A DNA stretch of 16,160 nucleotides, from positions 1 to 16,160 of IMG/VR virus record IMGVR_UViG_2512047041_000002; one strand, given 5' to 3'. The notes under the pieces were generated by a model. That model was given only the letters and a program-made list of their open reading frames with translations, had not been told where the DNA came from and did no database searches. Each line of letters opens with the position of its first letter. Position 1 is the stretch's first letter. This stretch comes from a virus (lineage: Duplodnaviria > Heunggongvirae > Uroviricota > Caudoviricetes). The position numbers were made by a program, and so were the translations under genes. Below are positions 1 to 16,160 of this stretch, piece after piece.

Positions 1-1284
1 TTACTTCTTCGCCTCTGCAACCACTTTGCTACCCACGCCGCGGTTATTGTATTCCCACATGCGGTTGTAGTTAGTGTCATTCAGATTGCGCTGTACTTCG
101 TCGTTATCATCAACGTTGCCAGTATTACCCGCAAACGGACGATTGGAAATCACCGCATCGGCCCACGGTTTCGCCGTGTTAAAACCTTCGTTGATGGCGC
201 TATCACGGATCACTACCTGACCGTTGGTATTGGCATCAACATCCAGCGAGCGGCCCAGTTGCGCCACGCCATCACCGGAAGCATTGAAACGGCTGTTTAC
301 GGCGAGGAAACCGTAATAGATGTTAGACAGCGTAGCCGGTGCAAACACATACGCTTCTTGCTGAGTACGTGAGTTCACCACGCGGAATTCGGTATTATCG
401 AACACCACTGCGCCGCGACCAGAAACGATATCCACATCCCCTTCAATATAGCTGTTGGTCACCAGCGTACGCGGCTGACGGTTGGTTTCCAGACGGTTCT
501 GCACACCACTGTTGGTGACAAAGAAGGTATTCTGACGACCGAGAATGTTGACGTTATTGATCTGCACTTTGTCGCCATCAGTACGCAGTGCCACCGCCGG
601 ATGGTTACCCGCATCTACGCTATCACCCAGCGTGTTTTCGATGGTCAGGTTTTGCAGTTGCAGGCCATTGTTTTGTGACCAGAAGACCGCAGAGCAGAGA
701 ACACCGATACTGTCGCTGCGTTTACTCTGGCAGCTATCGTACATATACCACGCCGGTTTACCTGGCATATATTTGCCGCGCGGGTTGACGTCGTGACGCC
801 AGTCGGCAGGGCTCATGCCACCATCAAGGGAAAGCCCAATCTTCACATCAATCGGTTTTTCACCTGTACCGTACAGAGTAATTCCACCCGGAGCGGCAGG
901 GACATACACCGTTCCCTGATACTCACCAGGCATCACGGCAATATACTGGCGCTTGTTGGTACGCTTGATAATTGCCGCATCTACCGCCGCCTGAATCGTG
1001 GTATGCGTTACACCTTGAGTACCCGCCGGGCCGACAACAAAGTCAGGTTGCGCAGGCAAGGTAATTGGGGAAGGATTCCACGCTGCAGCACCTGGCGTCA
1101 GGGACGCAAAATAGTGTTGAGCATCGAAATTCTGCGCTTCTTTTGCCGACAGAATCGGGCGAGAAGAGGTACCAGGCGCGGTTTGATCAGAAGGACGTTG
1201 ATCGGGCGGTGTTGAGCTACAGGCGGTCAGCGTCACGCCAAAAGCCAATGCCAGCGCCAGACGGGAAACTGAAAATGTGTTCAC
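1..1284 (-). CDS. ybhC: YbhC lipoprotein (pectinesterase-like / acyl-CoA thioesterase family), host gene on the gal side of attλ
   Basis: 427-aa ORF with N-terminal lipoprotein signal (LALALAFGVTLTAC|SS lipobox); I recognise the sequence as E. coli YbhC; it lies directly beside the lambda att core, as in K-12. Confidence 0.88.
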   Translation of the reverse strand: MNTFSVSRLALALAFGVTLTACSSTPPDQRPSDQTAPGTSSRPILSAKEAQNFDAQHYFASLTPGAAAWNPSPITLPAQPDFVVGPAGTQGVTHTTIQAAVDAAIIKRTNKRQYIAVMPGEYQGTVYVPAAPGGITLYGTGEKPIDVKIGLSLDGGMSPADWRHDVNPRGKYMPGKPAWYMYDSCQSKRSDSIGVLCSAVFWSQNNGLQLQNLTIENTLGDSVDAGNHPAVALRTDGDKVQINNVNILGRQNTFFVTNSGVQNRLETNRQPRTLVTNSYIEGDVDIVSGRGAVVFDNTEFRVVNSRTQQEAYVFAPATLSNIYYGFLAVNSRFNASGDGVAQLGRSLDVDANTNGQVVIRDSAINEGFNTAKPWADAVISNRPFAGNTGNVDDNDEVQRNLNDTNYNRMWEYNNRGVGSKVVAEAKK

Positions 1285-1330
1285 AGGTTGCTCCGGGCTA
1301 TGAAATAGAAAAATGAATCCGTTGAAGCCT

Positions 1331-1345
1331 GCTTTTTTATACTAA
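1331..1345. other. attL core (lambda 15-bp common core O), junction of bacterial B arm and phage P' arm
   Basis: Exact GCTTTTTTATACTAA; upstream flank gaagcct matches the attB B arm, downstream gttggcattataaaaaagcattgcttatcaatttg matches the lambda attP P' arm. Confidence 0.85.
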
Positions 1346-1425
1346 GTTGGCATTATAAAAAAGCATTGCTTATCAATTTGTTGCAACGAACAGGTCACTA
1401 TCAGTCAAAATAAAATCATTATTTG
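1346..1425. promoter_or_regulatory. attL P' arm with IHF H' site and Int arm-type sites P'1-P'3
   Basis: IHF-like tATCAAtttgTTG at 1371..1383; tandem arm-type-like decamers caGGTCACTAT (1391..1401), CAGTCAAAAT (1402..1411), AAAATCATTA (1412..1421) close to consensus C/AAGTCACTAT. Confidence 0.7.
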
Positions 1426-2489
1426 ATTTCAATTTTGTCCCACTCCCTGCCTCTGTCATCACGATACTGTGATGCCATGGTGTCCGACTTATGCCCGAGA
1501 AGATGTTGAGCAAACTTATCGCTTATCTGCTTCTCATAGAGTCTTGCAGACAAACTGCGCAACTCGTGAAAGGTAGGCGGATCCCCTTCGAAGGAAAGAC
1601 CTGATGCTTTTCGTGCGCGCATAAAATACCTTGATACTGTGCCGGATGAAAGCGGTTCACGACGAGTAGATGCAATTATGGTTTCTCCGCCAAGAATCTC
1701 TTTGCATTTATCAAGTGTTTCCTTCATTGATATCCCGAGAGCATCAACATGCAATGCTGTTGGGATGGCAATTTTTACGCCTGTTTTGCTTTGCTCGACA
1801 TAAAGATATCCATCTACGATATCAGACCACTTCATTTCGCATAAATCACCAACTCGCTGCCCGGTAACAACAGCCAGTTCCATTGCAAGTCTAAGCCAAC
1901 ATGGTGATGATTCTGCTGCTTGATAAATTTTCAGGTATTCGTCAGCCGTAAGTCTTGATCTCCTTACCTCTGATTTTGCTGCGCGAGTGGCAGCGACCGG
2001 GTTTGTTGTTATATGGCCTTCAGCTATTGCCTCTCGGAATGCATCGCTCAGTGTTGATCTGATTAACTTGGCTGACGCCGCCTTGCCCTCGTCTATGTAT
2101 CCATTGAGCATTGCTGCAATTTCTTTTGTGGTGATGTCTTCAAGTGGAGCATCAGTCAGACCCCTCCTTATTGCTTTAATTTTGCTCATGTAATTTATGA
2201 GTGTCTTCTGCTTGATTCCTCTGTTGGCGAGAATTTTTTCGTAGCGATCAAGCCATGAATGTAACGTAACAGAATTATCACTGTTGATTCTCGCTGTCAG
2301 AGGCTTGTGTTTGTGTCCTGAAAATAACTCAATGTTGGCCTGTATAGCCTCAGTGATTGCTATCCTCCTGTCTCGGCCTAATCCAAACTCTTTACCCGTC
2401 CTTGGGTCCCTGTAGCAGTAATATCCATTGTTTCTTATATAAAGATTAGGGGGTAAATCCCGGCGCTCATGACTTCGCCTTCTTCCCAT
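1419..2489 (-). CDS. int: Tyrosine integrase, lambda Int (356 aa)
   Basis: Translation MGRRRSHERRDLPPNLYIRNNGYYCYRDPRTGKEF... ends ...QYRDDRGREWDKIEIK, which I recognise as lambda Int with only a few substitutions; located next to attL and overlapping xis as in lambda. Confidence 0.95.
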   Translation of the reverse strand: MGRRRSHERRDLPPNLYIRNNGYYCYRDPRTGKEFGLGRDRRIAITEAIQANIELFSGHKHKPLTARINSDNSVTLHSWLDRYEKILANRGIKQKTLINYMSKIKAIRRGLTDAPLEDITTKEIAAMLNGYIDEGKAASAKLIRSTLSDAFREAIAEGHITTNPVAATRAAKSEVRRSRLTADEYLKIYQAAESSPCWLRLAMELAVVTGQRVGDLCEMKWSDIVDGYLYVEQSKTGVKIAIPTALHVDALGISMKETLDKCKEILGGETIIASTRREPLSSGTVSRYFMRARKASGLSFEGDPPTFHELRSLSARLYEKQISDKFAQHLLGHKSDTMASQYRDDRGREWDKIEIK

Positions 2490-2685
2490 TTCTGATCCTC
2501 TTCAAAAGGCTACCTGTTACTGGTCGATTTAAGTCAACCTTTACCGCTGATTCGTGGAACAGATACTCTCTTCCATCCTTAACCGGAGGAGGGAATATCC
2601 TGCATTCGCGCACCCATCGACGAACTGTTTCAAGGCTTCTTGGGCGTCGCTGGCGTGCGTTCCACTCCTGAAGTGTCAAGTACAT
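2467..2685 (-). CDS. xis: Excisionase Xis (72 aa)
   Basis: Internal ATG at 2683..2685 gives MYLTLQEWNARQRRPRSLETVRRWVRECRIFPPPVKDGREYLFHESAVKVDLNRPVTGSLLKRIRNGKKAKS, matching lambda Xis as I recall it; the 102-aa ORF in the track is an upstream extension. Confidence 0.92.
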   Translation of the reverse strand: MYLTLQEWNARQRRPRSLETVRRWVRECRIFPPPVKDGREYLFHESAVKVDLNRPVTGSLLKRIRNGKKAKS

Positions 2686-2802
2686 CGCAAAGTCTCCGCA
2701 ATTACACGCAAGAAAAAGCCGCATTGATGCGGCGATGGTAGGTCTGGATATCATTGAGCAATGAACAGGCCTCATCGAGTGTGAGGCGGTGTTATTTCAT
2801 GG

Positions 2803-3147
2803 TTAGTCCTTGCGTAGCTCGCTGATTCTTCTGTAAGTCTCTGGTGCTTTGTTTCCGTGTATCTTCATTTCAAACTTCAACAGAGCAACGAGAGAATCCC
2901 ATTCGTTGAGGATGCCTTTGAATGCCGGAACGCGCTTTGCAACCTTGTCGAATGAATCTCTGATTTCTGGAATCTGCTCAACAAGTGCAACGCATCGCCG
3001 GAAGTCTGCTGCGTCATGTGGAGCGCCGAAGTGATGACCATAGATATTTTTTTTCAGTCCACATGCGATTGAGGCAAGAGTTGCGCTACTGATGCCGACA
3101 TCGCCAGTTGATTGCCATTTCAAAACCTTCATAGCCAAATCTGACAT
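2803..3147 (-). CDS. Hypothetical phage early-left protein (114 aa)
   Basis: ATG at 3145..3147 preceded by GGAGA Shine-Dalgarno; ORF MSDLAMKVLKWQSTGDVG...; no motif recognised. Track start at 3174 lacks an RBS. Confidence 0.6.
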   Translation of the reverse strand: MSDLAMKVLKWQSTGDVGISSATLASIACGLKKNIYGHHFGAPHDAADFRRCVALVEQIPEIRDSFDKVAKRVPAFKGILNEWDSLVALLKFEMKIHGNKAPETYRRISELRKD

Positions 3148-3173
3148 TTCTTGTCTCCAATAAAAAACCGCCA

Positions 3174-3341
3174 TCAGGCGTCTTGGTGTTCTTTCAGTTC
3201 TTCAATTCGAATATTGGTTACGTCTGCATGCGCTATCTGCGCCCATATCATCCAGTGGTTATAGCAGTCGTTGATGTCCTCTGCTTCGATAACCCTGTCG
3301 AATGGCTCTCCATTCCATTCACCTGTGACTCGGAAGTGCAT
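3174..3341 (-). CDS. Small hypothetical protein (55 aa), not in ORF track
   Basis: Hand translation of minus strand: MHFRVTGEWNGEPFDRVIEAEDINDCYNHWMIWAQIAHADVTNIRIEELKEHQDA*; GGAG Shine-Dalgarno 7 nt upstream; hydrophilic, protein-like composition, unlike the overlapping 61-aa track ORF. Confidence 0.45.
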   Translation of the reverse strand: MHFRVTGEWNGEPFDRVIEAEDINDCYNHWMIWAQIAHADVTNIRIEELKEHQDA

Positions 3342-3441
3342 TTATCATCTCCATAAAACAAAACTCGCCGTAGCGAGTTCAGATAAAAGAAATCCCCGCG
3401 AGTGCGAGGATTGTTATTCACCTTTGACGGCAAGTTGCAGG

Positions 3442-3969
3442 TTAGCCACGGTTAACCTCCTGCGGCGGTTCTGGCAGCGGCATCCAGTGGGTTACGTCAT
3501 CCAAGATATTTCCTGATAAATATGTGAAAGCTCTATATTTTTTGTAATCAATTGGACTCATTACCCAGTTCCAATATGCTGCCACTATTTGACCTTGACT
3601 AAATGCCAGTAACATTTTGGTGTCGTCCGGCATTCGCTCACTACAGCTTATCCAACCATCCGGAGTTACCGGCACTGGCTGAGCGGTATAAAGCGGTGTT
3701 ATATCTGCCCGAAAATTACATGCTTTATGCAGCCGCACCCCCCGTTCGACTTCTGCTTTGTCAGGATACATACCAGTGAACGTGTTATATTCACGGTCAA
3801 TTTGCGTGAAGGTTACCTTCCACGCCACCGGCTCTGCCTCAAGCGATGCCAGAGCAATTCGTGCCAGTTCTTCCGCTTCTTCTGCTGGCAGTACAACGTT
3901 GCTACCAGGTCTGTATGTTTCGCGCCACTGCTTGATTGTCAGCAGTCGCTCTTTGGTAATAGTGGTCAT
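3442..3969 (-). CDS. DUF551-like phage protein (175 aa)
   Basis: C-terminal PDGWISCSERMPDD...THWMPLPEPP signature that I associate with DUF551 phage proteins; ATG overlaps upstream stop (ATGA). Confidence 0.6.
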   Translation of the reverse strand: MTTITKERLLTIKQWRETYRPGSNVVLPAEEAEELARIALASLEAEPVAWKVTFTQIDREYNTFTGMYPDKAEVERGVRLHKACNFRADITPLYTAQPVPVTPDGWISCSERMPDDTKMLLAFSQGQIVAAYWNWVMSPIDYKKYRAFTYLSGNILDDVTHWMPLPEPPQEVNRG

Positions 3970-4481
3970 GCCGCGTTTCCTTCTTTCTTATTAACAATTA
4001 CACCGTCATATATTTCATTAAGGTGCCCTCTCAACTCCATGCGCCTTAATGCAGATAACATGTAATCGCATTCAACCTGCTTATTTCCAGTAAATGGCTT
4101 ATCGTCAGGATTACCCCAACAGCAATTACCCTTGGGCCATCCATGTACTTTCCGTACTCTTCCGTTAACAACGTGAAGTAATCCCCAGCCGGGAGGTAAA
4201 TCCTCAACTGAAATAATTTCCGGCTCACTAATAAAGAATCGCCAGTCGCCCATGCCAAGTGAGGGATTTTTACGGAAACGCTTTTTTCTATCTGCCAACA
4301 AGTCAGCACGAGAACACTTCGCCTCTATCAGGCATGATGCTGAATTTCTGAATCCCATAGCATCTGGCTGTTCTCCGGTACTGGTTACAGCTATAAAGCG
4401 GTCATGAAAACAGACCTTGAACCCGTTGCGCTTAAGGAACTTGTGCGCAATCTGACAGAGTTCGCTGTGTGTTAACGCCAT
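3966..4481 (-). CDS. Putative PD-(D/E)xK nuclease-fold protein (171 aa)
   Basis: Start MALTHSELCQ at 4479..4481 with AAGGAGAG Shine-Dalgarno; motif GEQPDAMGF ... CLIEAKCS resembles the PD...(D/E)xK signature; Cys-rich C-terminal region. Fold assignment is by motif only. Confidence 0.45.
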   Translation of the reverse strand: MALTHSELCQIAHKFLKRNGFKVCFHDRFIAVTSTGEQPDAMGFRNSASCLIEAKCSRADLLADRKKRFRKNPSLGMGDWRFFISEPEIISVEDLPPGWGLLHVVNGRVRKVHGWPKGNCCWGNPDDKPFTGNKQVECDYMLSALRRMELRGHLNEIYDGVIVNKKEGNAA

Positions 4482-4482
4482 A

Positions 4483-5076
4483 TCACTCTCCTTTGATGCG
4501 AATGCCAGCGGCACGGGAATCATTCCATCGCTTTACTTCTTCACGAATTACGTCAATGCATTCTTTCGAATCCATTAGGTAATCTTCATCAAAAAGACGT
4601 TCCTGTTCGTTTTCTATCGCAACAATGATTGCTTCAACTAACTTTTGTACCTGAGAACCACTTTCTAACTCTGCTATGCGCTTACTCCCATCCGAGATAA
4701 CGCCCTCGTAATACTCACGCTGCTCGTTGAGTTTTGATTTTGCCAACTCCAGTTGTTTTGTTAGTTCCGCAATACGGCAAACATCGTTGATACGCGTTTC
4801 CTCTAATGCGTTGATCTCATCCAACAATGCCAGCGCAACATTTGGATTAAAAGCAGCAATAAATTCAGCGTTTGCATAAGCCTGAACATCTGTTTCAACC
4901 AGGCAGTTAACATGACATTCTGCAATCACGCCACCGGGTTCTCCTTTCCATTTTTGGCAAACAAAAACTCCTGTTAAATTGCCGTGCTGGTTAACAGATG
5001 TATGCCCTACGATGTAGCTCCCTTTCGTTGCCTTTTCTGCCGCATCACGCAGTGCCTGATAATTAATTTCGCTCAC
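4483..5076 (-). CDS. Ead/Ea22-like early protein (197 aa, GTG start)
   Basis: GTG at 5074..5076 with GGAGGA Shine-Dalgarno, overlapping upstream stop (GTGA); MSEIN... N-terminus and ...AGIRIKGE C-terminus resemble Ea22-family proteins as I recall them. Confidence 0.55.
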   Translation of the reverse strand: MSEINYQALRDAAEKATKGSYIVGHTSVNQHGNLTGVFVCQKWKGEPGGVIAECHVNCLVETDVQAYANAEFIAAFNPNVALALLDEINALEETRINDVCRIAELTKQLELAKSKLNEQREYYEGVISDGSKRIAELESGSQVQKLVEAIIVAIENEQERLFDEDYLMDSKECIDVIREEVKRWNDSRAAGIRIKGE

Positions 5077-5297
5077 TCTTCATCCTCCAAGTCGGCAACG
5101 GCGTCCATCACATCAGAACCGCGAATAACCTCAAAAGCACGGCAGGCCATTTGAAATACCAGTTGCTCTTGCGGGTGAGGAGACTCCCAATATTTGAAGC
5201 CTGGGCGATGCGTGTACCCCATCATTGAATAAAAATCACCAGCAAGCTTAATCGCGGCATCGACAAGCTCTCTGTTAGTCATTCTTTTTCCGCTCAC
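5073..5297 (-). CDS. Hypothetical protein (74 aa, GTG start)
   Basis: GTG at 5295..5297 preceded by AAGGAGG; translationally coupled to both neighbours (4-nt overlaps). Confidence 0.5.
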   Translation of the reverse strand: MSGKRMTNRELVDAAIKLAGDFYSMMGYTHRPGFKYWESPHPQEQLVFQMACRAFEVIRGSDVMDAVADLEDEE

Positions 5298-5713
5298 TGG
5301 TTGCCTCCTTTGCGAAGCTGGGCGGCTAACTCATCACATATGTGCGTCAAAGAACAAAGTTTGATTGATGGATGTTCGCGCATCATCTCTACTCCCTGCG
5401 CCCGCACTTCAGACAGGAAAGCATCGGTGGCTGGCATATTTCCTGTTGCCTTCATTGCCTCCAAAATAACCAGAACGCCATCTCGCCCAACCACCTCAGC
5501 GATAACCTCGGTGTTGTCGCCAACAACATCGCAGAATGCCTGAACTGCCTTACGAGCCAGCGCACTCTCCGCCGCCAGCGCCGCGCACTTGGCCTCCGCT
5601 TCAGCAAATTTACGCACCAGATATTCAGCGTTTGTTTCGTTAACCTTTAAATCGCTTGGGATGCATTTACCTTTCAGGAATCCATCCATCTCAATTAGTG
5701 ACATTTGTTTCAT
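5294..5713 (-). CDS. Hypothetical protein (139 aa)
   Basis: ATG at 5711..5713 overlaps upstream stop (ATGA); part of a chain of coupled ORFs; no motif recognised. Confidence 0.55.
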
Positions 5714-5874
5714 TTCTTCCCACTCCGCAACATCGCATTCAGATATTTGTTTTGATTCACTGACGGAAAAGAATTTCTCTTTAGCAATTCCTCTCTCGAT
5801 GGCATTGGCTTTACGCGCTGGCGAATAATCATTTCTGCCGGAAGAATGCCGGGGTTGTATGCAAGTCCTCTCAT
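5710..5874 (-). CDS. Small hypothetical protein (54 aa)
   Basis: ATG at 5872..5874 preceded by GAGGA that overlaps the TGA stop of the upstream gene; the longer 101-aa track ORF overlaps the 5885..6181 gene and lacks an RBS. Confidence 0.4.
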
Positions 5875-5884
5875 GGTAAATTCC

Positions 5885-6181
5885 TCAGTCATTACTGATA
5901 GCGCCATAGCGTGATCGATAATTACGCAGCCGCGGGTCGATATATTCAGGGAAGTGGGTATATGTGGCTTTGCGGAATGGTCGGATTGATGTTTCGTTTG
6001 TTCGGTCCTTCTCATTTTTTAACGCGAGTTGTATATCGCGTCGGTACATCCGTTCTGCTTTTGTTTCTGGTGGCAGATCGATAAACGTGTCGAAAATGTT
6101 TTTGATATTTTCCAGCACCTCCGCCTTGGAGCTACCGGAGCAATTGCGCGGGTCATCCGCACCATACAGAGGCGCTGGCAT
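5885..6181 (-). CDS. Hypothetical protein (98 aa)
   Basis: ATG at 6179..6181, weak AAGG Shine-Dalgarno; fits the operon spacing. Confidence 0.5.
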
Positions 6182-6204
6182 AATGGGAGCCTTATTTTCA
6201 GTAA

Positions 6205-6792
6205 TCAGAAAGCAGGGTAATCGTTCTTGCTGTAACCATAATCATCTGCATGATTCTGGCTTACGTTTTTAGAGCGATTGTCTTTATCTTTGAGATTGGC
6301 AACCATGTTGGCGATAGTTTCTGGTTGCTTGCCTTCTGCCTTTTCTTTAAGGGTTTGACCTGTTTGTGCAATAAACGGGATGCGTATTTCCATCTGGTAG
6401 TTGTCTGCGCCAGTCTTTTTGTTTGTGGTTAATACTTTCTGGAGCACTAACCCGATTTTCTTTCCATGAAATTCAGGTGCAACAAATTTACTGGCGGAAA
6501 CCATATGCTGCGTTAATTGTCCAATCCCGGCACACCCCATCATGGCGTGAACGACATTTGCGCCAAATTTGTTTTCCGTTCCGTCATTTTTCTGAACACA
6601 GACGCTAAGATATTGGATTTTACGTCCGTCGTCGGATTCTCCAGAAAACTCAATAAATTTGGCTCCTTTTTCTGATTGCTTTAGTTCTGCTTCAGTAATG
6701 GTAATGATATGGGCGCCAGTTTCGTTAATAAAACCACCTTGCCCTGCGGTCAGTGCTGCTTCTTCGTTATAAGTAAAAATCACGTTGCTCAT
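6205..6792 (-). CDS. Sak4-partner protein (195 aa), possibly ssDNA-binding (DUF669-like); not a canonical SSB
   Basis: Directly downstream of and overlapping (ATGA) the Sak4-like ATPase gene; Lys-rich acidic C-terminal tail ending DYPAF; the family name is from memory and uncertain. Confidence 0.5.
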   Translation of the reverse strand: MSNVIFTYNEEAALTAGQGGFINETGAHIITITEAELKQSEKGAKFIEFSGESDDGRKIQYLSVCVQKNDGTENKFGANVVHAMMGCAGIGQLTQHMVSASKFVAPEFHGKKIGLVLQKVLTTNKKTGADNYQMEIRIPFIAQTGQTLKEKAEGKQPETIANMVANLKDKDNRSKNVSQNHADDYGYSKNDYPAF

Positions 6793-7469
6793 GCGGCGTT
6801 TTCCTTAATTTGATGAACATTATTGATGCCGTAGTAATCACAAACAGTGGCATCGACGAAAGAGAGATCGTTATCAATCTCATTGGAATCAAACATTCCC
6901 ATTGGGGATTTGACAGTGTCTGCACCGTTGTTTTTCGTGGTGAAAAAGAACTGGTCATCGCGGGTAAGAGTGCGAAGAACTATAGTAAACATGCCTTCGA
7001 CAGTGATTTTCTCGTCCAGCATTTTGCCGATAGTTTTCATTTTCACGCGCCCCATAGGGGTTTCTTCGGTATGTGCAAGAAAATAGACTCTCAGGTCATC
7101 AGGTGCATCCTGTGCAGCCTTAATCACCTCCCATGCGTGGCGGCCTATCTCAGTAAATTTATCAAACGATTTTTCTTCTGAGCGGCGCATAAACTCATTG
7201 CTCATCACATACTGGAAGTCATCAACAATAACGATTCTTTTTCCGTATTCGTGAGCACGCTTAATTACAGCAACTATTACGTCCCATTTGTCAGTGGTAA
7301 CTACGGTTCCTTTTTTTGCTCTGGCATCCCATGCAAGCCAGTCTTTTGATTTAAATGGTAGCGGCTTGCCTATTGGTTTTATAAGTATTGCTTCCTCTGG
7401 ATTGATATTTCTCATGCTGGTTGATTTTCCGGTGCCAGATTCACCGAGTATTAATGTCGCAGTTCCCAT
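6789..7469 (-). CDS. Sak4-type RecA-like core ATPase (226 aa), phage recombination/annealing protein
   Basis: Walker A GESGTGKST near N-terminus, Walker B-like RIVIVDDF, and a size typical of Sak4; occupies the position of lambda Red genes. Confidence 0.7.
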   Translation of the reverse strand: MGTATLILGESGTGKSTSMRNINPEEAILIKPIGKPLPFKSKDWLAWDARAKKGTVVTTDKWDVIVAVIKRAHEYGKRIVIVDDFQYVMSNEFMRRSEEKSFDKFTEIGRHAWEVIKAAQDAPDDLRVYFLAHTEETPMGRVKMKTIGKMLDEKITVEGMFTIVLRTLTRDDQFFFTTKNNGADTVKSPMGMFDSNEIDNDLSFVDATVCDYYGINNVHQIKENAA

Positions 7470-7477
7470 AATTTGCC

Positions 7478-7666
7478 TCAGAATGGTAATTCGGATGGGC
7501 AGGAAAGAAATTCGCGCTCATTCATGCGCTCTCTTTGCGCCTGCCATAAACAAAGTTGTTTCTTTGATTTATCTCCCGCTTTACGCCAGTAACGAGCCTC
7601 AGCAATGTGATATTCTCTTTTTAATCGACTTAACTCTGGAGTTTTCGCCAGTTCTACCGGAATCAT
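7478..7666 (-). CDS. Hypothetical protein (62 aa)
   Basis: ATG at 7664..7666 with GGAGG Shine-Dalgarno, overlapping the Kil-like stop (ATGA); basic, Arg/Lys-rich. Confidence 0.5.
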   Translation of the reverse strand: MIPVELAKTPELSRLKREYHIAEARYWRKAGDKSKKQLCLWQAQRERMNEREFLSCPSELPF

Positions 7667-7776
7667 TTTGACCTCCATTTTCTGTAGGCTTCTACGGCTT
7701 CACGAAACATCTTTTCATCGCCAATAAAAGTGGCGATAGTGAATTTAGTCTGGATAGCCATAAGTGTTTTATCCAT
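7663..7776 (-). CDS. Kil-like small protein (37 aa)
   Basis: MDKTLMAIQTKFTIATFIGDEKMFREAVEAYRKWRSK resembles lambda Kil as I recall it; position immediately downstream of cIII, overlapping its 3' end, matches lambda gene order. Confidence 0.5.
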   Translation of the reverse strand: MDKTLMAIQTKFTIATFIGDEKMFREAVEAYRKWRSK

Positions 7777-7909
7777 TTTTGGGAACTCCTGGCTGATTAA
7801 GTATGTCGATAAGGCGTTTCCATCCATCACGTAATTTACGTGTGATTCGTTCAAGTAAAGATTCGGAAGGGCAGCCAGCAACAGGCCACCCTGCAATGGC
7901 ATATTGCAT
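7769..7909 (-). CDS. cIII: CIII (46 aa; shorter than the 54-aa lambda protein)
   Basis: ATG at 7907..7909 with AGGAG Shine-Dalgarno; MQYAIAGWPVAGCPSESLLERITRKLRDGWKRLIDILNQPGVPKNG* matches lambda CIII as I recall it up to PKNG, then stops. Confidence 0.85.
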   Translation of the reverse strand: MQYAIAGWPVAGCPSESLLERITRKLRDGWKRLIDILNQPGVPKNG

Positions 7910-7970
7910 GGTGTGCTCCTTATTTATACATAACGAAAAACGCCTCGAGTGAAGCGTTATTGGTATGCAT

Positions 7971-7996
7971 ATAAAAAGGCCCTCACACTGGAGGGC
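7971..7996 (-). terminator. Intrinsic terminator-like hairpin upstream of cIII (tL1-like position)
   Basis: On the minus strand GCCCTC-cagtgt-GAGGGC (6-bp GC stem) followed by CTTTTTAT. Confidence 0.5.
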
Positions 7997-8261
7997 AAAG
8001 AAGATTTCCAATAATCAGAACAAGTCGGCTCCTGTTTAGTTACGAGCGACATTGCTCCGTGTATTCACTCGTTGGAATGAATACACAGTGCTTCTCTGTG
8101 CTAAATAATTAAATCATATTCTGATTTGGTTAGTTTATACGCACCTCCTCTGGTGTAATATGCAAATCTGTCTTTGCTTCCATCAGAATTGTATACCCAC
8201 CCACCAAATGGAAAGATAGTGAACCGCCCCGGGTTTCCTGGAGAGTGTTTTATCTGTGAAC

Positions 8262-9152
8262 TCAGGCTGCCAGATCATCGTTTCCGATGGAAGCATAATA
8301 AGCTTTTTCTGCTTCTGCCGGAGGAGTATGGCCCAGCCTTTCCAGCAATCGTCGATTGTTATACCAGTCCACCCACGTGAGTGTGGCCAGTTCCACTTCT
8401 GCACGGTTTTTCCAGCTCTTACGGTGTATTACCTCCGCTTTGTAAAGACCATTGATGCTCTCCGCCATCGCGTTGTCATACGAGTCGCCTGTACTTCCTG
8501 TTGATGCCAGTAATCCGGCTTCCTTAAGCCGCTGTGTGTAGGCCAGCGATACATACTGAGAACCTTTATCACTGTGATGGACCGTGCCGGACGGTCGACG
8601 GGCCCATAACGCCTGCTCCAGTGCATCCAGCACGAATGTCGTTTCCATGGACGATGAGACCCGCCACCCCACGATGTATCCGGCAAACACATCAATGATG
8701 AACGCCACATAGACGAAGCCCCGCCATGTGCTGACGTAAGTAAAATCAGCCACCCACAGCTGGTCAGGTCGTTCTGCCACGAACTGACGGTTTACGCGGT
8801 CGCCTGCGGCAACGGCTTTCCGGCTGATGGTCGTACGGACCTTTTTACCCCGGAGAACACCGGCAAGTCCCATAACCGCCATGAGACGTGCCACAGTGCA
8901 TCTGGCCACTCTGATACCTTCCCGTAACAACTGACGCCAGACTTTACGCACACCGTATACCTTGTGATTTTCATCGTATACGCGCTGTATCTCTTTCTTC
9001 AGCCAGTCATCGCGCTGCGCACGGGCACTGCGTTTATCCGGATGATGTCGCTGTTGCTGACAGTGGTAATACGTTGACGGGGCAATATGCAGTTCGCTGC
9101 ATAGCGGTCCGACCCCGTACTGCTCACGCAGCTTATCCAGCAGTGGCATCAT
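8262..9152 (-). CDS. IS629-like transposase OrfB (296 aa, DDE catalytic domain)
   Basis: IS3-family OrfB-like sequence (…[31 protein letters not shown]…[11 protein letters not shown]…) in the -1 frame relative to orfA. Confidence 0.85.
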
Positions 9153-9475
9153 TTTTTCCAGAGGCGGTCGAACTCCGCCTTCGCAAAATAAGCGGAAGCC
9201 TGGCGAAGGATATCGTTACTGCGGCGCAGTTCACGATTTTCACGTTCCAGCTCTTTCAGACGCTGACGTTCAGCGGTGGTGAGCCCTCCATCACCGCCCC
9301 CGGTATCCCGCTCATGCTGGCGAACCCAGACACGCAGAGTCTCCGGCGTACAGCCAATCTTTGGAGCAATGGAACAAATTGTCGCCCATTGTGAGTCATA
9401 TTCGCCCTGACTTTCCAGAACCATACGGACTGCCCGTTGACGGACTTCGGGGGAAAAACGAGTATTTTTAGTCAT
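9149..9475 (-). CDS. IS629-like transposase OrfA (108 aa, HTH)
   Basis: [30 protein letters not shown]... with C-terminal leucine-zipper-like region; ends in an A6 run (GGAAAAAATGA) at the orfA/orfB overlap. Confidence 0.85.
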
Positions 9476-9622
9476 CCTGTTTACCTCTTTCTCAGGAAGT
9501 TTAGTCTCCAGGATTCCCGGGGCGGTTCATCTCCAGAACTTGGCAGGATTACAAGTTCATACGGAGAACTTGCACGAGCAGCAACAAAGCCACTTCGATA
9601 TGTTGAACAGACAGGGCGATCT

Positions 9623-10030
9623 ATGCCAGCCATTAGCACTCTTGAGAATGGCCTTCATCCAGTTTTAGAGAGCGCATTGTCTGGCGCTTTTAGAACTACT
9701 GGCACTATCGCAGGGTTCTCTGGAGGAGGCGTTATTGGAGCAATAGCGGGTGGCGCTGCAGGTGGGGCAATTGATGCAATGGCAAAAGGAGCGATAGCGA
9801 AATTATCCGCAACTAGAAGCGGTCGTTACGCTATTGAAAAGGCTGTTCAAGAGGCAACAAAGGCAGTTAAGGTTGGGGCAAGTGATGGCGCATTAGCGGC
9901 GGCGGAACGCAGATTTATGGCAAATAAGGCCGCCGTAAAAGCAATACGCGAGGCACTAGGAAACGAAGAGTTCCAGCGTTTAGCAAGAGCTGGAATTGTG
10001 GCATCGCTAAGCGGAATGGCACAGGAGTAA
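9623..10030 (+). CDS. Glycine-zipper protein (135 aa), possible membrane-active/bacteriocin-like; 5' end may be truncated by the IS
   Basis: TIAGFSGGGVIGAIAGGAAGGAIDAMAKGAI GxxxG-repeat segment followed by Ala/Lys-rich amphipathic helices; weak RBS at the first ATG and the frame stays open back to the IS boundary. Confidence 0.4.
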   Translation: MPAISTLENGLHPVLESALSGAFRTTGTIAGFSGGGVIGAIAGGAAGGAIDAMAKGAIAKLSATRSGRYAIEKAVQEATKAVKVGASDGALAAAERRFMANKAAVKAIREALGNEEFQRLARAGIVASLSGMAQE

Positions 10031-10360
10031 TTAGTCATCCATGGATGGATTGAGCTTATCTCGTGTTGATGTGGCAATTTTCCCAACATTTTTCAACCAA
10101 GATTTTAAGAAGGATATGTCGTCCTTAATATCATGAATATCCTCATTCTTTATACGATCAACCTTATCCTCTAAGCTCTCTATAGAACGCTCAATGCTAG
10201 ACAGAGAGATTTTTAAGTCCCCTTGCTCACGTTCCAGTGAGGATTTGAGAGCACAATATTCGTTTTCTAGAATTCCTATTTTTTTTGTTAGAGAGTGCAT
10301 TCGATACTCATACACCAAACCAGAAACGACTAATGCAGCCAACAGAAACCATTCAAGCAC
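10031..10360 (-). CDS. Membrane-anchored coiled-coil protein (about 110 aa, GTG start)
   Basis: GTG at 10358..10360 preceded by AAGGAGG; N-terminal hydrophobic helix LEWFLLAALVVSGLVYEY followed by heptad-like SLEREQGDLKISLSSIERSIESLEDKVDRIK; stop abuts the convergent glycine-zipper stop (TAATTA). Confidence 0.5.
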   Translation of the reverse strand: MLEWFLLAALVVSGLVYEYRMHSLTKKIGILENEYCALKSSLEREQGDLKISLSSIERSIESLEDKVDRIKNEDIHDIKDDISFLKSWLKNVGKIATSTRDKLNPSMDD

Positions 10361-10390
10361 ACCAACCTCCTTAGTTTTGAGCAGGATACC

Positions 10391-10756
10391 ATGAAAAAAG
10401 TTAACATTGGAAACGTACCAAAGATGCTCGTTCCGCTCTTTGAGAGCGGTACAATTGTGTGTTGTAGAGACTTTCCAGAATGGCAACGCCTGCATCAAAA
10501 ACTTGGCGTTGACGTGCAGGACTCGGATGCCAACGGAGCGTCTCATACAATGAGCAGCGAGAATGGTGTTTTGCATGTGATAGGTGTGTTCAATGGCAAA
10601 CTATCTACTATTGCCCATGAGTGCGCTCACATGGCATTCGATATCTGCTCAAGGGTCGGTGTTGATGTTGAACCAGGAAGAGCCAATGAGACTTACTGCT
10701 ACTTAATGAGCAGGCTTGTTGAGTTCTGCGAGCGACATATCAAAAAGCCGGAGTGA
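10391..10756 (+). CDS. Small HExxH-motif protein (121 aa), possible ImmA/IrrE-like metallopeptidase-fold protein
   Basis: ATG at 10391 with AGGA 4 nt upstream; motif TIAHECAHMAFD (HExxH) in the C-terminal half; two Cys pairs. Assignment by motif only. Confidence 0.45.
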   Translation: MKKVNIGNVPKMLVPLFESGTIVCCRDFPEWQRLHQKLGVDVQDSDANGASHTMSSENGVLHVIGVFNGKLSTIAHECAHMAFDICSRVGVDVEPGRANETYCYLMSRLVEFCERHIKKPE

Positions 10757-13213: not shown

Positions 13214-15130
13214 ATGAGAGACATTACAGCCAATGTGATCGTATCGATGCCTTCGCAACTCTTCACTATGGCGCGTTCTTTTAAAGCCGTAGCTAATGGC
13301 AAAATTTATATCGGTAAAATTGACACTGATCCTGTAAATCCAGAAAACCAGATTCAGGTCTATGTGGAGAATGAAGACGGTTCTCACGTTCCTGTTTCGC
13401 AACCAATAATCATTAACGCTGCTGGATATCCTGTATATAACGGACAGATTGCCAAATTCGTTACCGTGCAAGGCCATTCTATGGCTGTTTATGATGCGTA
13501 TGGTGCGCAGCAGTTCTATTTTCCTAATGTGCTGAAGTATGACCCTGATCAACTACGGCAGCAATTAGAAGACCCAGATGGAGCGAATAAATACCCAAAA
13601 CTTCAGATAGCAAGATGGAGAGACAGTTATGATGTAAGAGGTTGGGGGGCTATTGGTGATGGTGTTCATGATGATACATCAGCTCTATCAGAATTACTTT
13701 CTGTTGCAACAGGTGGTGAAAAGATAGATGGGCGAGGGCTTACTTTTAAAGTATCAACTCTTCCAGATGTCAGTCGATTTAAAAATGCTCGTTTTTTATT
13801 TGAGAGAATACCGGGTCAGCCTCTTTTTTATGCTTCTGAAGATTTTATCCAGGGAGAGTTATTTAAAATTACAGATACACCGTGGTACAACGCCTGGACG
13901 CAGGATAAAATGTTTGTATATGACAATGTCATCTATGCGCCTTTTATGGCTGGAGACCGCCATGGTGTAAATAACCTCCATGTTGCATGGGTTCGCTCAG
14001 GAGATGACGGGAAGACCTGGACAACGCCGGAATGGCTTACAGATTTACATGAAAACTATCCCACAGTTAACTATCACTGCATGAGTATGGGGGTTGTCAG
14101 AAATCGCCTTTTTGCTGTAATTGAGACGCGGACCGTGAGAGGAAATAAACTGCAGGTTGCAGAGTTGTGGGATCGCCCAATGAGTCGCAGCCTTCGCGTT
14201 TATGGTGGTATAACGAAAGCAGCAAATCAGCAAGTCGCTTATATTCGCATTACTGATCACGGATTATTTGCTGGTGATTTTGTCAACTTCTCAAACTCTG
14301 GTGTTACAGATGTTACCGGGAATATGACGGTGACTACTGTTATTGATAAAAATACCTTTACAGTTACGACGCAAAATACCCAGGATGTGGATCAGAATAA
14401 CGAGGGTAGATACTGGAGTTTTGGCACATCATTTCACTCGTCACCATGGAGAAAAACCAGTCTTGGAACTATTCCTTCTTTTGTTGACGGAAGCACTCCT
14501 GTTACTGAGATTCACAGTTTTGCGACGATTAGCGATAACAGTTTTGCTGTTGGCTACCATAATGGTGATATTGGTCCACGCGAGCTTGGGATACTCTATT
14601 TCTCTGATGCTTTCGGTTCTCCTGGTAGCTTTGTTCGCAGACGCATACCTGCAGAATATGAGGCGAATGCATCTGAGCCATGTGTAAAATATTATGATGG
14701 CATTCTGTATCTGACGACCAGGGGGACATTAAGTACTCAACCCGGTAGTTCATTGCACAGAAGCTCTGATTTAGGTACATCATGGAATTCTCTTCGCTTC
14801 CCAAATAATGTTCATCACTCAAACCTTCCTTTTGCCAAAGTTGGCGATGAGCTGGTTATTTTTGGCAGTGAGCGCGCATTTGGTGAGTGGGAAGGAGGAG
14901 AACCTGATAACCGTTATGCAGGAAATTATCCAAGAACATTTATGACCAGAGTTAACGTCAATGAGTGGAGTCTGGATAATGTAGAGTGGGTTAATGTTAC
15001 TGATCAGATTTATCAGGGCGGAATAGTTAACTCTGCGGTTGGTGTTGGTTCAGTTTGTATCAAAGACAACTGGCTGTACTACATTTTCGGTGGGGAAGAC
15101 TTTTCTAAACCCATGGAGCATAGGGGATAA
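13214..15130 (+). CDS. Tailspike: P22-like head-binding N-terminal domain plus glycosidase-type receptor-binding domain with Asp-box (BNR) motifs; likely the 5' part of a frameshifted longer gene
   Basis: First ~115 aa ([11 protein letters not shown]...[38 protein letters not shown]...[15 protein letters not shown]...NVLKYDPDQ) closely resemble the P22 gp9 N-terminus as I recall it; [14 protein letters not shown] motif; two Asp-boxes SGDDGKTW and SSDLGTSW. Confidence 0.8.
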
Positions 15131-16160
15131 CAACAGAAAATATCCTTATGTTCACGATGGTCACCCGGCTGATTTGTATTGTTTCAGGGTGAAAATTAAA
15201 CAGGAAGAATTTGTTTCAAGGGATTTTGTCTACGGAGCCACTCCTAACAGAACGCTTCCTACTTTTATGTCGACGTCAGGCGTGAGGACGGTTCCTGTAC
15301 CCGTTGATTTCACAGATGATGTTGCCGTCCAGTCACTGACTGTCCATGCAGGTACATCAGGACAAGTTCGCGCGGAAGTCAAACTTGAGGGTAATTACGC
15401 CATTATTGCGAAGAAAGTACCGTCTGATGATGTTACCGCTCAGAGATTAATCGTTAGCGGCGGTGAAACAACGTCTTCAGCAGATGGTGCAATGATAACG
15501 TTGCATGGTTCCAGAAGCAGTACTCCACGTCGCGCGGTATATAACGCACTCGAACATCTTTTTGAGAACGGAGATGTTAAACCTTATCTTGATAATGTAA
15601 ATGCTCTTGGTGGTCCGGGAAACAGGTTCTCGATAGTTTATCTTGGCTCCAATCCTGTGGTTACCAGTGACGGAACATTAAAGACAGAGCCGGTCTCTCC
15701 TGACGAAGCATTGCTGGATGCCTGGGGTGACGTCAGGTATATCGCTTATAAATGGCTGAACGCTGTCGCTATAAAGGGGGAAGAAGGGGCGAGGATACAT
15801 CATGGTGTAATCGCGCAGCAACTTCGTGATGTTCTTATTTCTCACGGACTCATGGAAGAAGAAAGCACAACATGCCGCTATGCCTTTCTTTGCTATGACG
15901 ATTATCCCGCAGTATATGATGACGTCATTACTGGCCAAAGGGAAATGCCGCTGACTGATAATGACGGGAGCATCATTGTTGATGAGGATGATAATCCAGT
16001 GATGGTAATAGAAGACATCATTGAGCGCGTTGAAATAACGCCAGCAGGATCTAGATGGGGGGTCAGACCTGATCTCTTATTCTATATCGAGGCAGCATGG
16101 CAGCGCAGAGAAATGGATAAGATAAAAGCTAGGTTAGACTTAATAGAAGGGAAGCACTAA
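15039..16160 (+). CDS. Tailspike C-terminal region with S74-type intramolecular chaperone domain signature; probably continues 13214..15130 in another frame
   Basis: Frame open from 15027, overlapping the end of the upstream ORF; contains TSDGTLK (Ser-x4-Lys spacing as I recall for the autocleavage site of such domains) and [11 protein letters not shown] motif; track start is a TTG with no RBS, so an independent start is doubtful. Confidence 0.55.

Follow-up and report, generated by a model that had tools for sequence, protein, structure and literature searches.

The cryptic lambdoid prophages of Escherichia coli K-12 are remnants that lack lytic and structural modules and have become fixed in the chromosome. 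In O157 enterohaemorrhagic E. coli (EHEC), IS629 bounds multi-kilobase deletions of lambdoid prophages and leaves these prophages defective, and a pathway dependent on the IS-excision enhancer (IEE) excises the element itself. Among phages specific for the K1 capsule, CUS-3 is a P22-like phage that carries an endosialidase tailspike and the O-acetyltransferase gene neuO and sits at argW, and the strain ExPEC XM holds the undeleted type of K1-tailspike prophage found at attλ. The locus analysed here, a window of 16,160 nucleotides from a caudoviricete record of IMG/VR, shares features with all of these systems. As in the O157 deletions, IS629 bounds a multi-kilobase loss of lambdoid prophage DNA, but the host is a K1 extraintestinal (CSF-type) E. 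coli and, unlike in the IEE pathway, the IS is retained. The right arm of the prophage is 97-99% identical to CUS-3, whereas the prophage itself carries a lambda-type integrase and occupies attλ, differs from CUS-3 in its early-left arm and lacks about 28 kb of core genes. Compared with the K-12 cryptic prophages the event is recent, its flanks being still 99-100% identical to functional relatives.

The insertion sequence occupies positions 8220-9529 (1310 bp), with its transposase on the minus strand; the broader span of 7910-9622 given in the original prediction includes the flanks. Its inverted repeats, located at 8220 (orfB end) and 9529 (orfA end), are imperfect, with a TG start and a CA end: 22 of the first 25 positions match and the first 14 nt are identical at both ends. 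This 14-mer, TGAACCGCCCCGGG, is found at 8220-8233 on the plus strand and at 9516-9529 on the minus strand, and at no other site in the window, with 0 occurrences expected by chance. Two overlapping reading frames are present on the minus strand, namely orfA (9149-9475, 108 aa), which matches the N-terminal part of the NCBIfam model NF033516 (IS3 family transposase), and orfB (8262-9152, 296 aa), which carries the DDE transposase domain and scores 314.6 bits against the same model (cutoff 160). The orfA/orfB overlap is covered by a full-length ALIL pseudoknot, a programmed -1 frameshift element (9078-9194, minus strand; Rfam RF01497, 120.2 bits for a gathering score of 50). With the features annotated as "insertion sequence: IS3 family IS629" in the Stx-phage records LC567824.1 and LC567828.1 taken as the reference, the identity is 99.6% over 1310 nt; it reaches 100% over the full length for many E. 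coli copies, and a match is present in 4263 of the 5426 complete E. coli genomes. Judged by its sequence, this is a complete and presumably active copy of IS629 itself. The earlier description, an IS629-like element of 1310 bp with intact ends, was accurate for length and ends, and at 99.6-100% identity its "-like" was too cautious. In length, TG...CA ends, orfA/orfB organization with a -1 frameshift and ALIL pseudoknot, the element does not differ from IS629 as described; this copy is unusual only in its context, without the 3-4 bp duplication. Near-identical IS629 copies are also found in O157 genomes under the label "IS1203 family".

The sequences abutting the element read ...GGAAAGATAG on the left and TCTCCAGAAC... 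on the right. The flanking triplets, TAG and TCT, differ at two of three bases, and the 4-mers ATAG and TCTC differ as well. Reading of both junctions thus bears out the claim that the IS lacks a target-site duplication, and re-examination of the termini revealed neither a 3-bp nor a 4-bp repeat. A shifted duplication, either of 4 bp or allowing for a 2-bp TG ambiguity at the left junction, was also considered and ruled out, as none exists. The native left site continues with TGTCT; the identity of its TG to the start of the IS is a one-in-sixteen coincidence, and the TCT that follows cannot yield the observed joint. Taken alone, the missing duplication carries little evidential weight, since 63 of 64 pairs of unrelated triplets differ, and it is the uninterrupted relatives, not the absent duplication, that show the deletion. 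Indeed, in four O157 genomes 21 of 47 IS629 sites carry a duplication and 26 do not (PMC3271280); duplication-less IS629 is common and the pattern is unremarkable for the element. Nor does it count against the identification as IS629, since the duplication belongs to the insertion event and not to the element. Some weight comes from N32, a CSF isolate and the sole 100% match to the window among the 5426 complete genomes, with the same two junctions. Its int gene is interrupted by a separate IS629 flanked by a 3-bp duplication, CAG, at a site that is uninterrupted in the window, which indicates that a 3-bp duplication is normal in this lineage and that its absence at the joint is meaningful.

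On the left of the element, a lambda/HK629-like, minus-strand early-left operon runs up to cIII (7769-7909, minus strand; PHROG 550, E 3e-29; annotated CIII in N32), the early-left gene retained closest to the joint, which is accompanied by the lambda cIII thermoregulator (7864-7922, minus strand; Rfam, 88.5 bits). The recombination module retained in this arm comprises Abc2, an ATP-binding protein, kil and cIII, and int and xis are kept too; the ATP-binding protein is named a Sak4-like ssDNA-annealing protein in the record of phage HK629. The left breakpoint had been assigned to the region upstream of cIII. More precisely, it lies within an ORF of 65 codons located between ral and cIII, of which the stop and 38 codons remain as a 3' remnant cut by the IS (8102-8219, minus strand). 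The uncut ORF, unannotated, is found in MS 196-1 (L003 6082-6279, minus strand) between the same two genes and matches PHROG 15499, of unknown function (E 5e-49). The native sequence of MS 196-1 reads ...GATAG followed directly by TGTCTATTT, and there the left flank runs on into the segment with ral, cI, cro, cII and the replication genes. A consensus scan placed two terminator-like hairpins in the interval from the IS to cIII (7939-7996, minus strand); it returned 4 such sites for 2.3 expected, which makes this weak evidence. The consensus scan found no promoter-like site facing out of the IS toward cIII. Expression of neighbouring genes from the IS was considered as well and dropped, given this lack of an outward promoter-like site toward cIII and the two intervening hairpins.

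On the right, the sequence adjacent to the element is the 3' fragment of a P22 gp16-family DNA-ejection (DNA transfer) gene, consisting of the last 166 codons and the stop (9530-10030, plus strand). The fragment aligns with positions 539-666 of the 668-position profile PHROG 770, "DNA transfer protein" (E 4e-27). Its first 200 nt are 100% identical to an intact 711-codon gene of AR_0017 (L004 1366-3501), starting from nt 1636 of that gene, and the window keeps codons 546-711. In AR_0017 and dozens more genomes the sequence from 9530 onward is the interior of an intact gp16-family gene, and the native site of AR_0017 reads ...GTCGATAT joined directly to TCTCCAGAAC. The plus-strand ORF that contains the fragment, 9437-10030, is open across the IS end. 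Its frame is therefore open up to the IS, as had been stated, but it is the end of gp16 and not an accessory ORF. The PHROG profiles matched both breakpoint genes, and NCBIfam contained no matching model for gp16 or for the 65-aa ORF. Beyond gp16, a ClpP-like gene, Arc/Mnt, Ant and the endosialidase tailspike follow on the plus strand, a P22-like right end in which gp16, immI with Arc/Mnt and Ant, and the tailspike are all present and whose identity to phiv205-1, as to CUS-3, is 97-99%. The annotation of N32 agrees, with Arc, Ant and tailspike/endosialidase, and an acyltransferase next to attR. The K1 endosialidase tailspike gene itself (13214-16160, plus strand), from the same 97-99% identical region, is frameshifted: it has 2947 nt compared with 2946 nt in E10, one extra T at about 15098-15101 causing a +1 shift, which may represent further decay or a homopolymer sequencing error.

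Comparison with undeleted relatives shows what separates these two flanks elsewhere. STEC383 carries both of them in an intact P22-like prophage inserted at the same ybhC-ybhB site, where window position 8108 corresponds to 3480608 and 9530 to 3452905, that is 27,702 bp apart. About 43 annotated genes occupy this interval. They include, for morphogenesis, the rest of gp16, gp20, gp7, tail-hub, head-completion, coat, scaffold, portal and terminase genes and, for the other functions, lysis genes, Q, the nin region, a helicase, a replication protein, cII, cro, a cI-type repressor and N. The native continuations read in MS 196-1, for the left flank, and in AR_0017, for the right flank, likewise show no adjacency of the two. 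Between cIII and the immI/tailspike region, neither the N32 locus as annotated, which is 100% identical, nor the comparison with STEC383 reveals N, cI, cro, replication, Q, lysis or head genes, and none of the immunity, replication, lysis and head genes that a functional prophage needs lies between attL and the tailspike. The original prediction, that the IS629 marks a deletion of the prophage core and leaves a cryptic prophage, is supported by this gap of 27.7 kb, which the comparison with an intact attλ prophage that it had proposed made it possible to map. Its summary of what is kept (integration, recombination and accessory genes) holds for int/xis and the recombination module, but not for the ORF beside the IS.

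The limits of the remnant are also defined. The window begins in the chromosome with ybhC (1-1284). The lambda att core of attL, an exact 15/15 match to GCTTTTTTATACTAA (0 expected by chance), is located at 1331-1345 on the plus strand between ybhC and int, and matches to phages start at 1331. The lambda-type tyrosine integrase gene is intact (1419-2489, minus strand, 356 aa), its N32 homologue being annotated as a tyrosine recombinase/integrase. In N32, both junctions are carried by one IS copy, and attL and attR delimit the remnant. Its right arm closes with the acyltransferase and, about 1.5 kb beyond the tailspike region, a second att core, after which come ybhB and bioA. The two cores are separated by 19.6 kb, of which IS DNA accounts for about 6 kb. 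Since attL and attR enclose the whole N32 remnant, the missing genes are not beyond the tailspike, and the reservation that they might be encoded past position 16160 does not apply. N32 differs from the window by several IS insertions and so represents another strain or assembly. One IMG/VR draft contig, which equals window positions 1-8393 and ends 174 nt into the IS, likewise has the left junction; the right junction occurs neither in IMG/VR nor among the GTDB representative genomes. Collectively, these comparisons argue that the IS629 of the window very probably represents the joint of an internal prophage deletion, a claim which does not depend on whether the deletion arose from two IS copies or from one.

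Both routes had been offered at the outset, as recombination between IS copies or as adjacent deletion; both predict exactly the structure seen. On balance we lean modestly towards recombination between two IS629 copies in direct orientation, in preference to an adjacent deletion mediated by transposase. The starting point would be a mosaic lambdoid prophage at attλ, with a lambda-type int, P22/CUS-3-like morphogenesis genes and a K1 endosialidase tailspike. This prophage would have acquired two IS629 copies of identical orientation, at TAG in the small ORF and at TCT in gp16. RecA-dependent recombination between them would then loop out the intervening DNA together with one IS copy, so that one hybrid IS would remain, with half of each duplication at its sides (TAG...TCT). 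Whatever the route, the deletion has one end within the 65-codon ORF of the pL operon, just upstream of cIII, and the other at codon 545 of gp16. By comparison with intact relatives, early and control functions (ral, N with pL, cI, cro, cII, the replication genes, the nin region, Q and lysis) were lost, as were the structural genes for terminase, portal, scaffold, coat, tail hub and gp7/gp20 ejection proteins. What is left, a remnant of about 15 kb, would be neither inducible nor able to replicate; it retains attL, int and xis together with the early-left recombination genes, the immI/ant region and the tailspike.

Several observations favour this two-copy scheme. The chromosome of N32 has about 28-30 IS629 places, compared with a median of 3-4, and three IS629 copies lie inside this very prophage, two of them in direct orientation. 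Moreover, the copy-out-paste-in mechanism by which IS3-family elements transpose does not itself delete donor DNA (bioRxiv 10.1101/2023.06.07.543989). The hybrid origin of the remaining IS cannot be read from its sequence, because it is identical to many other copies. No prophage with IS629 and a duplication at either site, the intermediate that the two-copy scheme predicts, was found in the 5426 genomes, in IMG/VR or in JGI metagenome contigs; the lineage is rare in these collections, so that this absence, a point against the two-copy scheme, may say little.

The main competing explanation, which we regard as a serious though less probable one, involves a single IS629, inserted in gp16 or in the small ORF, from which a transposase-dependent intramolecular event removed the adjacent DNA while the IS was kept. 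Such an event could be an aberrant one-ended strand transfer, a tandem-dimer pathway, or the repair of breaks with the participation of IEE. Such a route has precedents, since numerous deletions in O157 genomes have been associated with IS629, and IS629-adjacent deletions of up to >40 kb are documented when IEE is present. The lack of a two-IS intermediate in genomes, IMG/VR and metagenome contigs, with the same rarity of the lineage there, is also in line with it. N32 provides a further hint: a second duplication-less IS629 replaces 1337 bp of its tailspike gene (window 14800-16136), a segment that is IS-free and ancestral in the window. For this second event one insertion plus one adjacent deletion is the more parsimonious account, and the single-IS route may therefore also operate in the lineage. 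On the other hand, copy-out-paste-in regenerates the donor, so that an extra reaction would be needed to delete DNA and yet keep the IS. IEE-linked deletions, as we read them, arise on excision of the IS, whereas here it is kept and complete and the locus has no repaired joint free of the IS, and IEE is concentrated in EHEC, EPEC and ETEC genomes. Finally, the joint displays no microhomology beyond the chance TG.

Recombination between two direct copies remains our preferred reading, and the other explanations fare much worse. The core could have been deleted first by an IS-independent event, for instance illegitimate recombination, with IS629 landing later at the joint and its duplication never made or subsequently lost. 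IS-free deletions of this kind do occur, as in the second of the tandem prophages in ExPEC XM, where the cII side meets the middle of gp20 without any IS. However, at the present locus such a history would require that the IS hit exactly the joint and that its duplication be absent or lost, with two of three bases different; at another site in the lineage, this IS did generate a clean duplication of 3 bp. The IS-free joint that it predicts, GGAAAGATAG running directly into TCTCCAGAAC, was absent from the flank searches. This sequence of events is accordingly very improbable.

A rearrangement appears slightly less probable still. It supposes that recombination between IS629 copies at two places or in two prophages moved the core elsewhere or beyond the window, and the composition of the prophage could suggest it, its right arm being closest to CUS-3, normally at argW, and its left arm lambda/HK629-like. 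The missing segment should then be bordered elsewhere by IS629 with the complementary flanks, ...GATATTCT and TAGTGTCT..., and we searched accordingly for the sequence upstream in gp16 joined to the IS and for the IS joined to TAGTGTCT.... These complementary junctions gave zero matches in the 5426 complete E. coli genomes, N32 included, in IMG/VR and in JGI metagenome contigs. The search for other IS629 copies with such flanks, which had been proposed as a check, thus returned none in N32 or in the other 5425 genomes, and in the sister strain N32 the missing segment is absent along with the reciprocal junctions. The absence of a reciprocal junction fits a deletion and not a rearrangement; it does not separate the two-copy from the single-IS route. 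Furthermore, N32 has both arms between ybhC and ybhB, within the 19.6 kb that separate its att cores, and phages with the K1-tailspike arm integrate at attλ as single units. Indeed, the prophage of ExPEC XM, with a lambda-type int, the K1 tailspike and an acyltransferase, occupies attλ as one unit; since phages of this type exist, one parent suffices for both arms and no exchange between prophages is needed. On these sequence comparisons, a rearrangement is largely refuted for N32. As to an assembly artefact, in which two IS629 copies of an intact prophage were collapsed and the interval between them skipped, IS629 is a high-copy repeat and the IMG/VR draft contig does break within it, but the chromosome-level sequence of N32, from a separate strain or assembly, carries both junctions on one IS and nothing else from attL to attR, which makes this the least credible of the explanations.

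The loss of pL, N, cI and cII would leave the early-left genes and int/xis without their promoters and activators, and we infer that the remnant is unable to be induced, to replicate, to lyse the cell or to build particles. The event belongs to a well-documented class of IS629-associated prophage deletions; it is ordinary IS-driven decay, with no departure from known biology. A bolder interpretation, to which we give little credence, is that the deletion reflects selected domestication instead of neutral decay, IS629 having stripped the lethal, inducible core of a CUS-3-type phage and fixed its useful cargo. The setting would be a K1 CSF-isolate lineage in a Shigella-like IS629 expansion, with about 30 copies. 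If so, the cargo would consist of the phase-variable capsule O-acetyltransferase beside attR, the immI/antirepressor region and the Abc2/Sak4-like module, and recurrent IS629-adjacent deletions would be the main route of prophage remodelling in this clone.

For annotation, the consequences are direct: the prophage should be labelled a remnant, with gp16 given as a 3' pseudogene fragment and a frameshift noted in the tailspike. The joint between the cIII side, IS629 and gp16, present in 1 of the 5426 complete genomes, constitutes a clean lineage marker. The locus adds one more case of IS629 prophage erosion, outside EHEC, and has little significance beyond annotation; if, however, the K1 lineage is truly in an IS629 expansion, this would be modestly interesting for understanding how genomes evolve in meningitis-associated E. 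coli.

In the window, the complete IS629 (8220-9529, minus strand) lies to the right of cIII. In the E. coli relative MS 196-1, whose left flank is uninterrupted, a 65-codon ORF lies between ral and cIII (L003 6082-6279, minus strand); it is unannotated in RefSeq but matches PHROG 15499, a family of unknown function, from end to end (E 5e-49). A remnant of this ORF persists in the window at 8102-8219. Between the IS and cIII, two terminator-like hairpins (7939-7996, minus strand) are located just upstream of the lambda cIII RNA thermoregulator, which is intact (7864-7922, minus strand; Rfam, 88.5 bits). The IMG/VR draft contig IMGVR_UViG_2778261646_000002 is 99.99% identical to this side of the window (contig 2276-10667 versus window 1-8393) and stops 174 nt inside IS629; it is probably of the same lineage as the window, or a draft of the same genome.

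On the other side of the deletion joint, the K1 endosialidase tailspike gene of the window (13214-16160, plus strand) is split into a pair of ORFs that overlap (13214-15130 and 15039-16160), because the T-run at 15098-15101 has one T more than in the intact, 2946-nt tailspike gene of strain E10. This extra T may reflect genuine decay or a homopolymer sequencing error.

Loss and IS insertion were also observed in other CUS-3-like prophages. In ExPEC XM, attλ is occupied by two CUS-3-like K1 prophages in tandem (L007 1-43800). In the second of them, an internal deletion that carries no IS has fused the cII side to mid-gp20. Approximately the core that the window lacks was lost here too, independently and without an IS. 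The canonical CUS-3 prophages at argW of E10 (L005 ~4600-5870) and NCTC11151 (L006 ~4560-5870) each have an IS629 within the ClpP-like immI gene; its position is similar in the two strains, its orientation opposite.

Further insertions are found in the remnant of N32, the sister strain that shares the joint of the window. An additional IS629 without duplication (L001 26157-27466; flanks CTT versus GAC) has taken the place of 1337 bp at the 3' end of the tailspike gene, corresponding to window 14800-16136, while the window retains this segment IS-free. It is a second, later IS629-adjacent deletion within the same prophage. Moreover, int of N32 is interrupted by IS629 with a 3-bp duplication, CAG (L001 10354-11663), and its tailspike gene contains IS1 and IS600, separated by ~400 bp or less (L001 23778-25841). 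The prophage remnant is a local insertion sink. Since the N32 chromosome (NZ_CM165895.1) has ~28-30 IS629 places, compared with a median of 3-4 per IS629-bearing E. coli genome, these counts suggest an IS629 expansion in the lineage of this CSF isolate.
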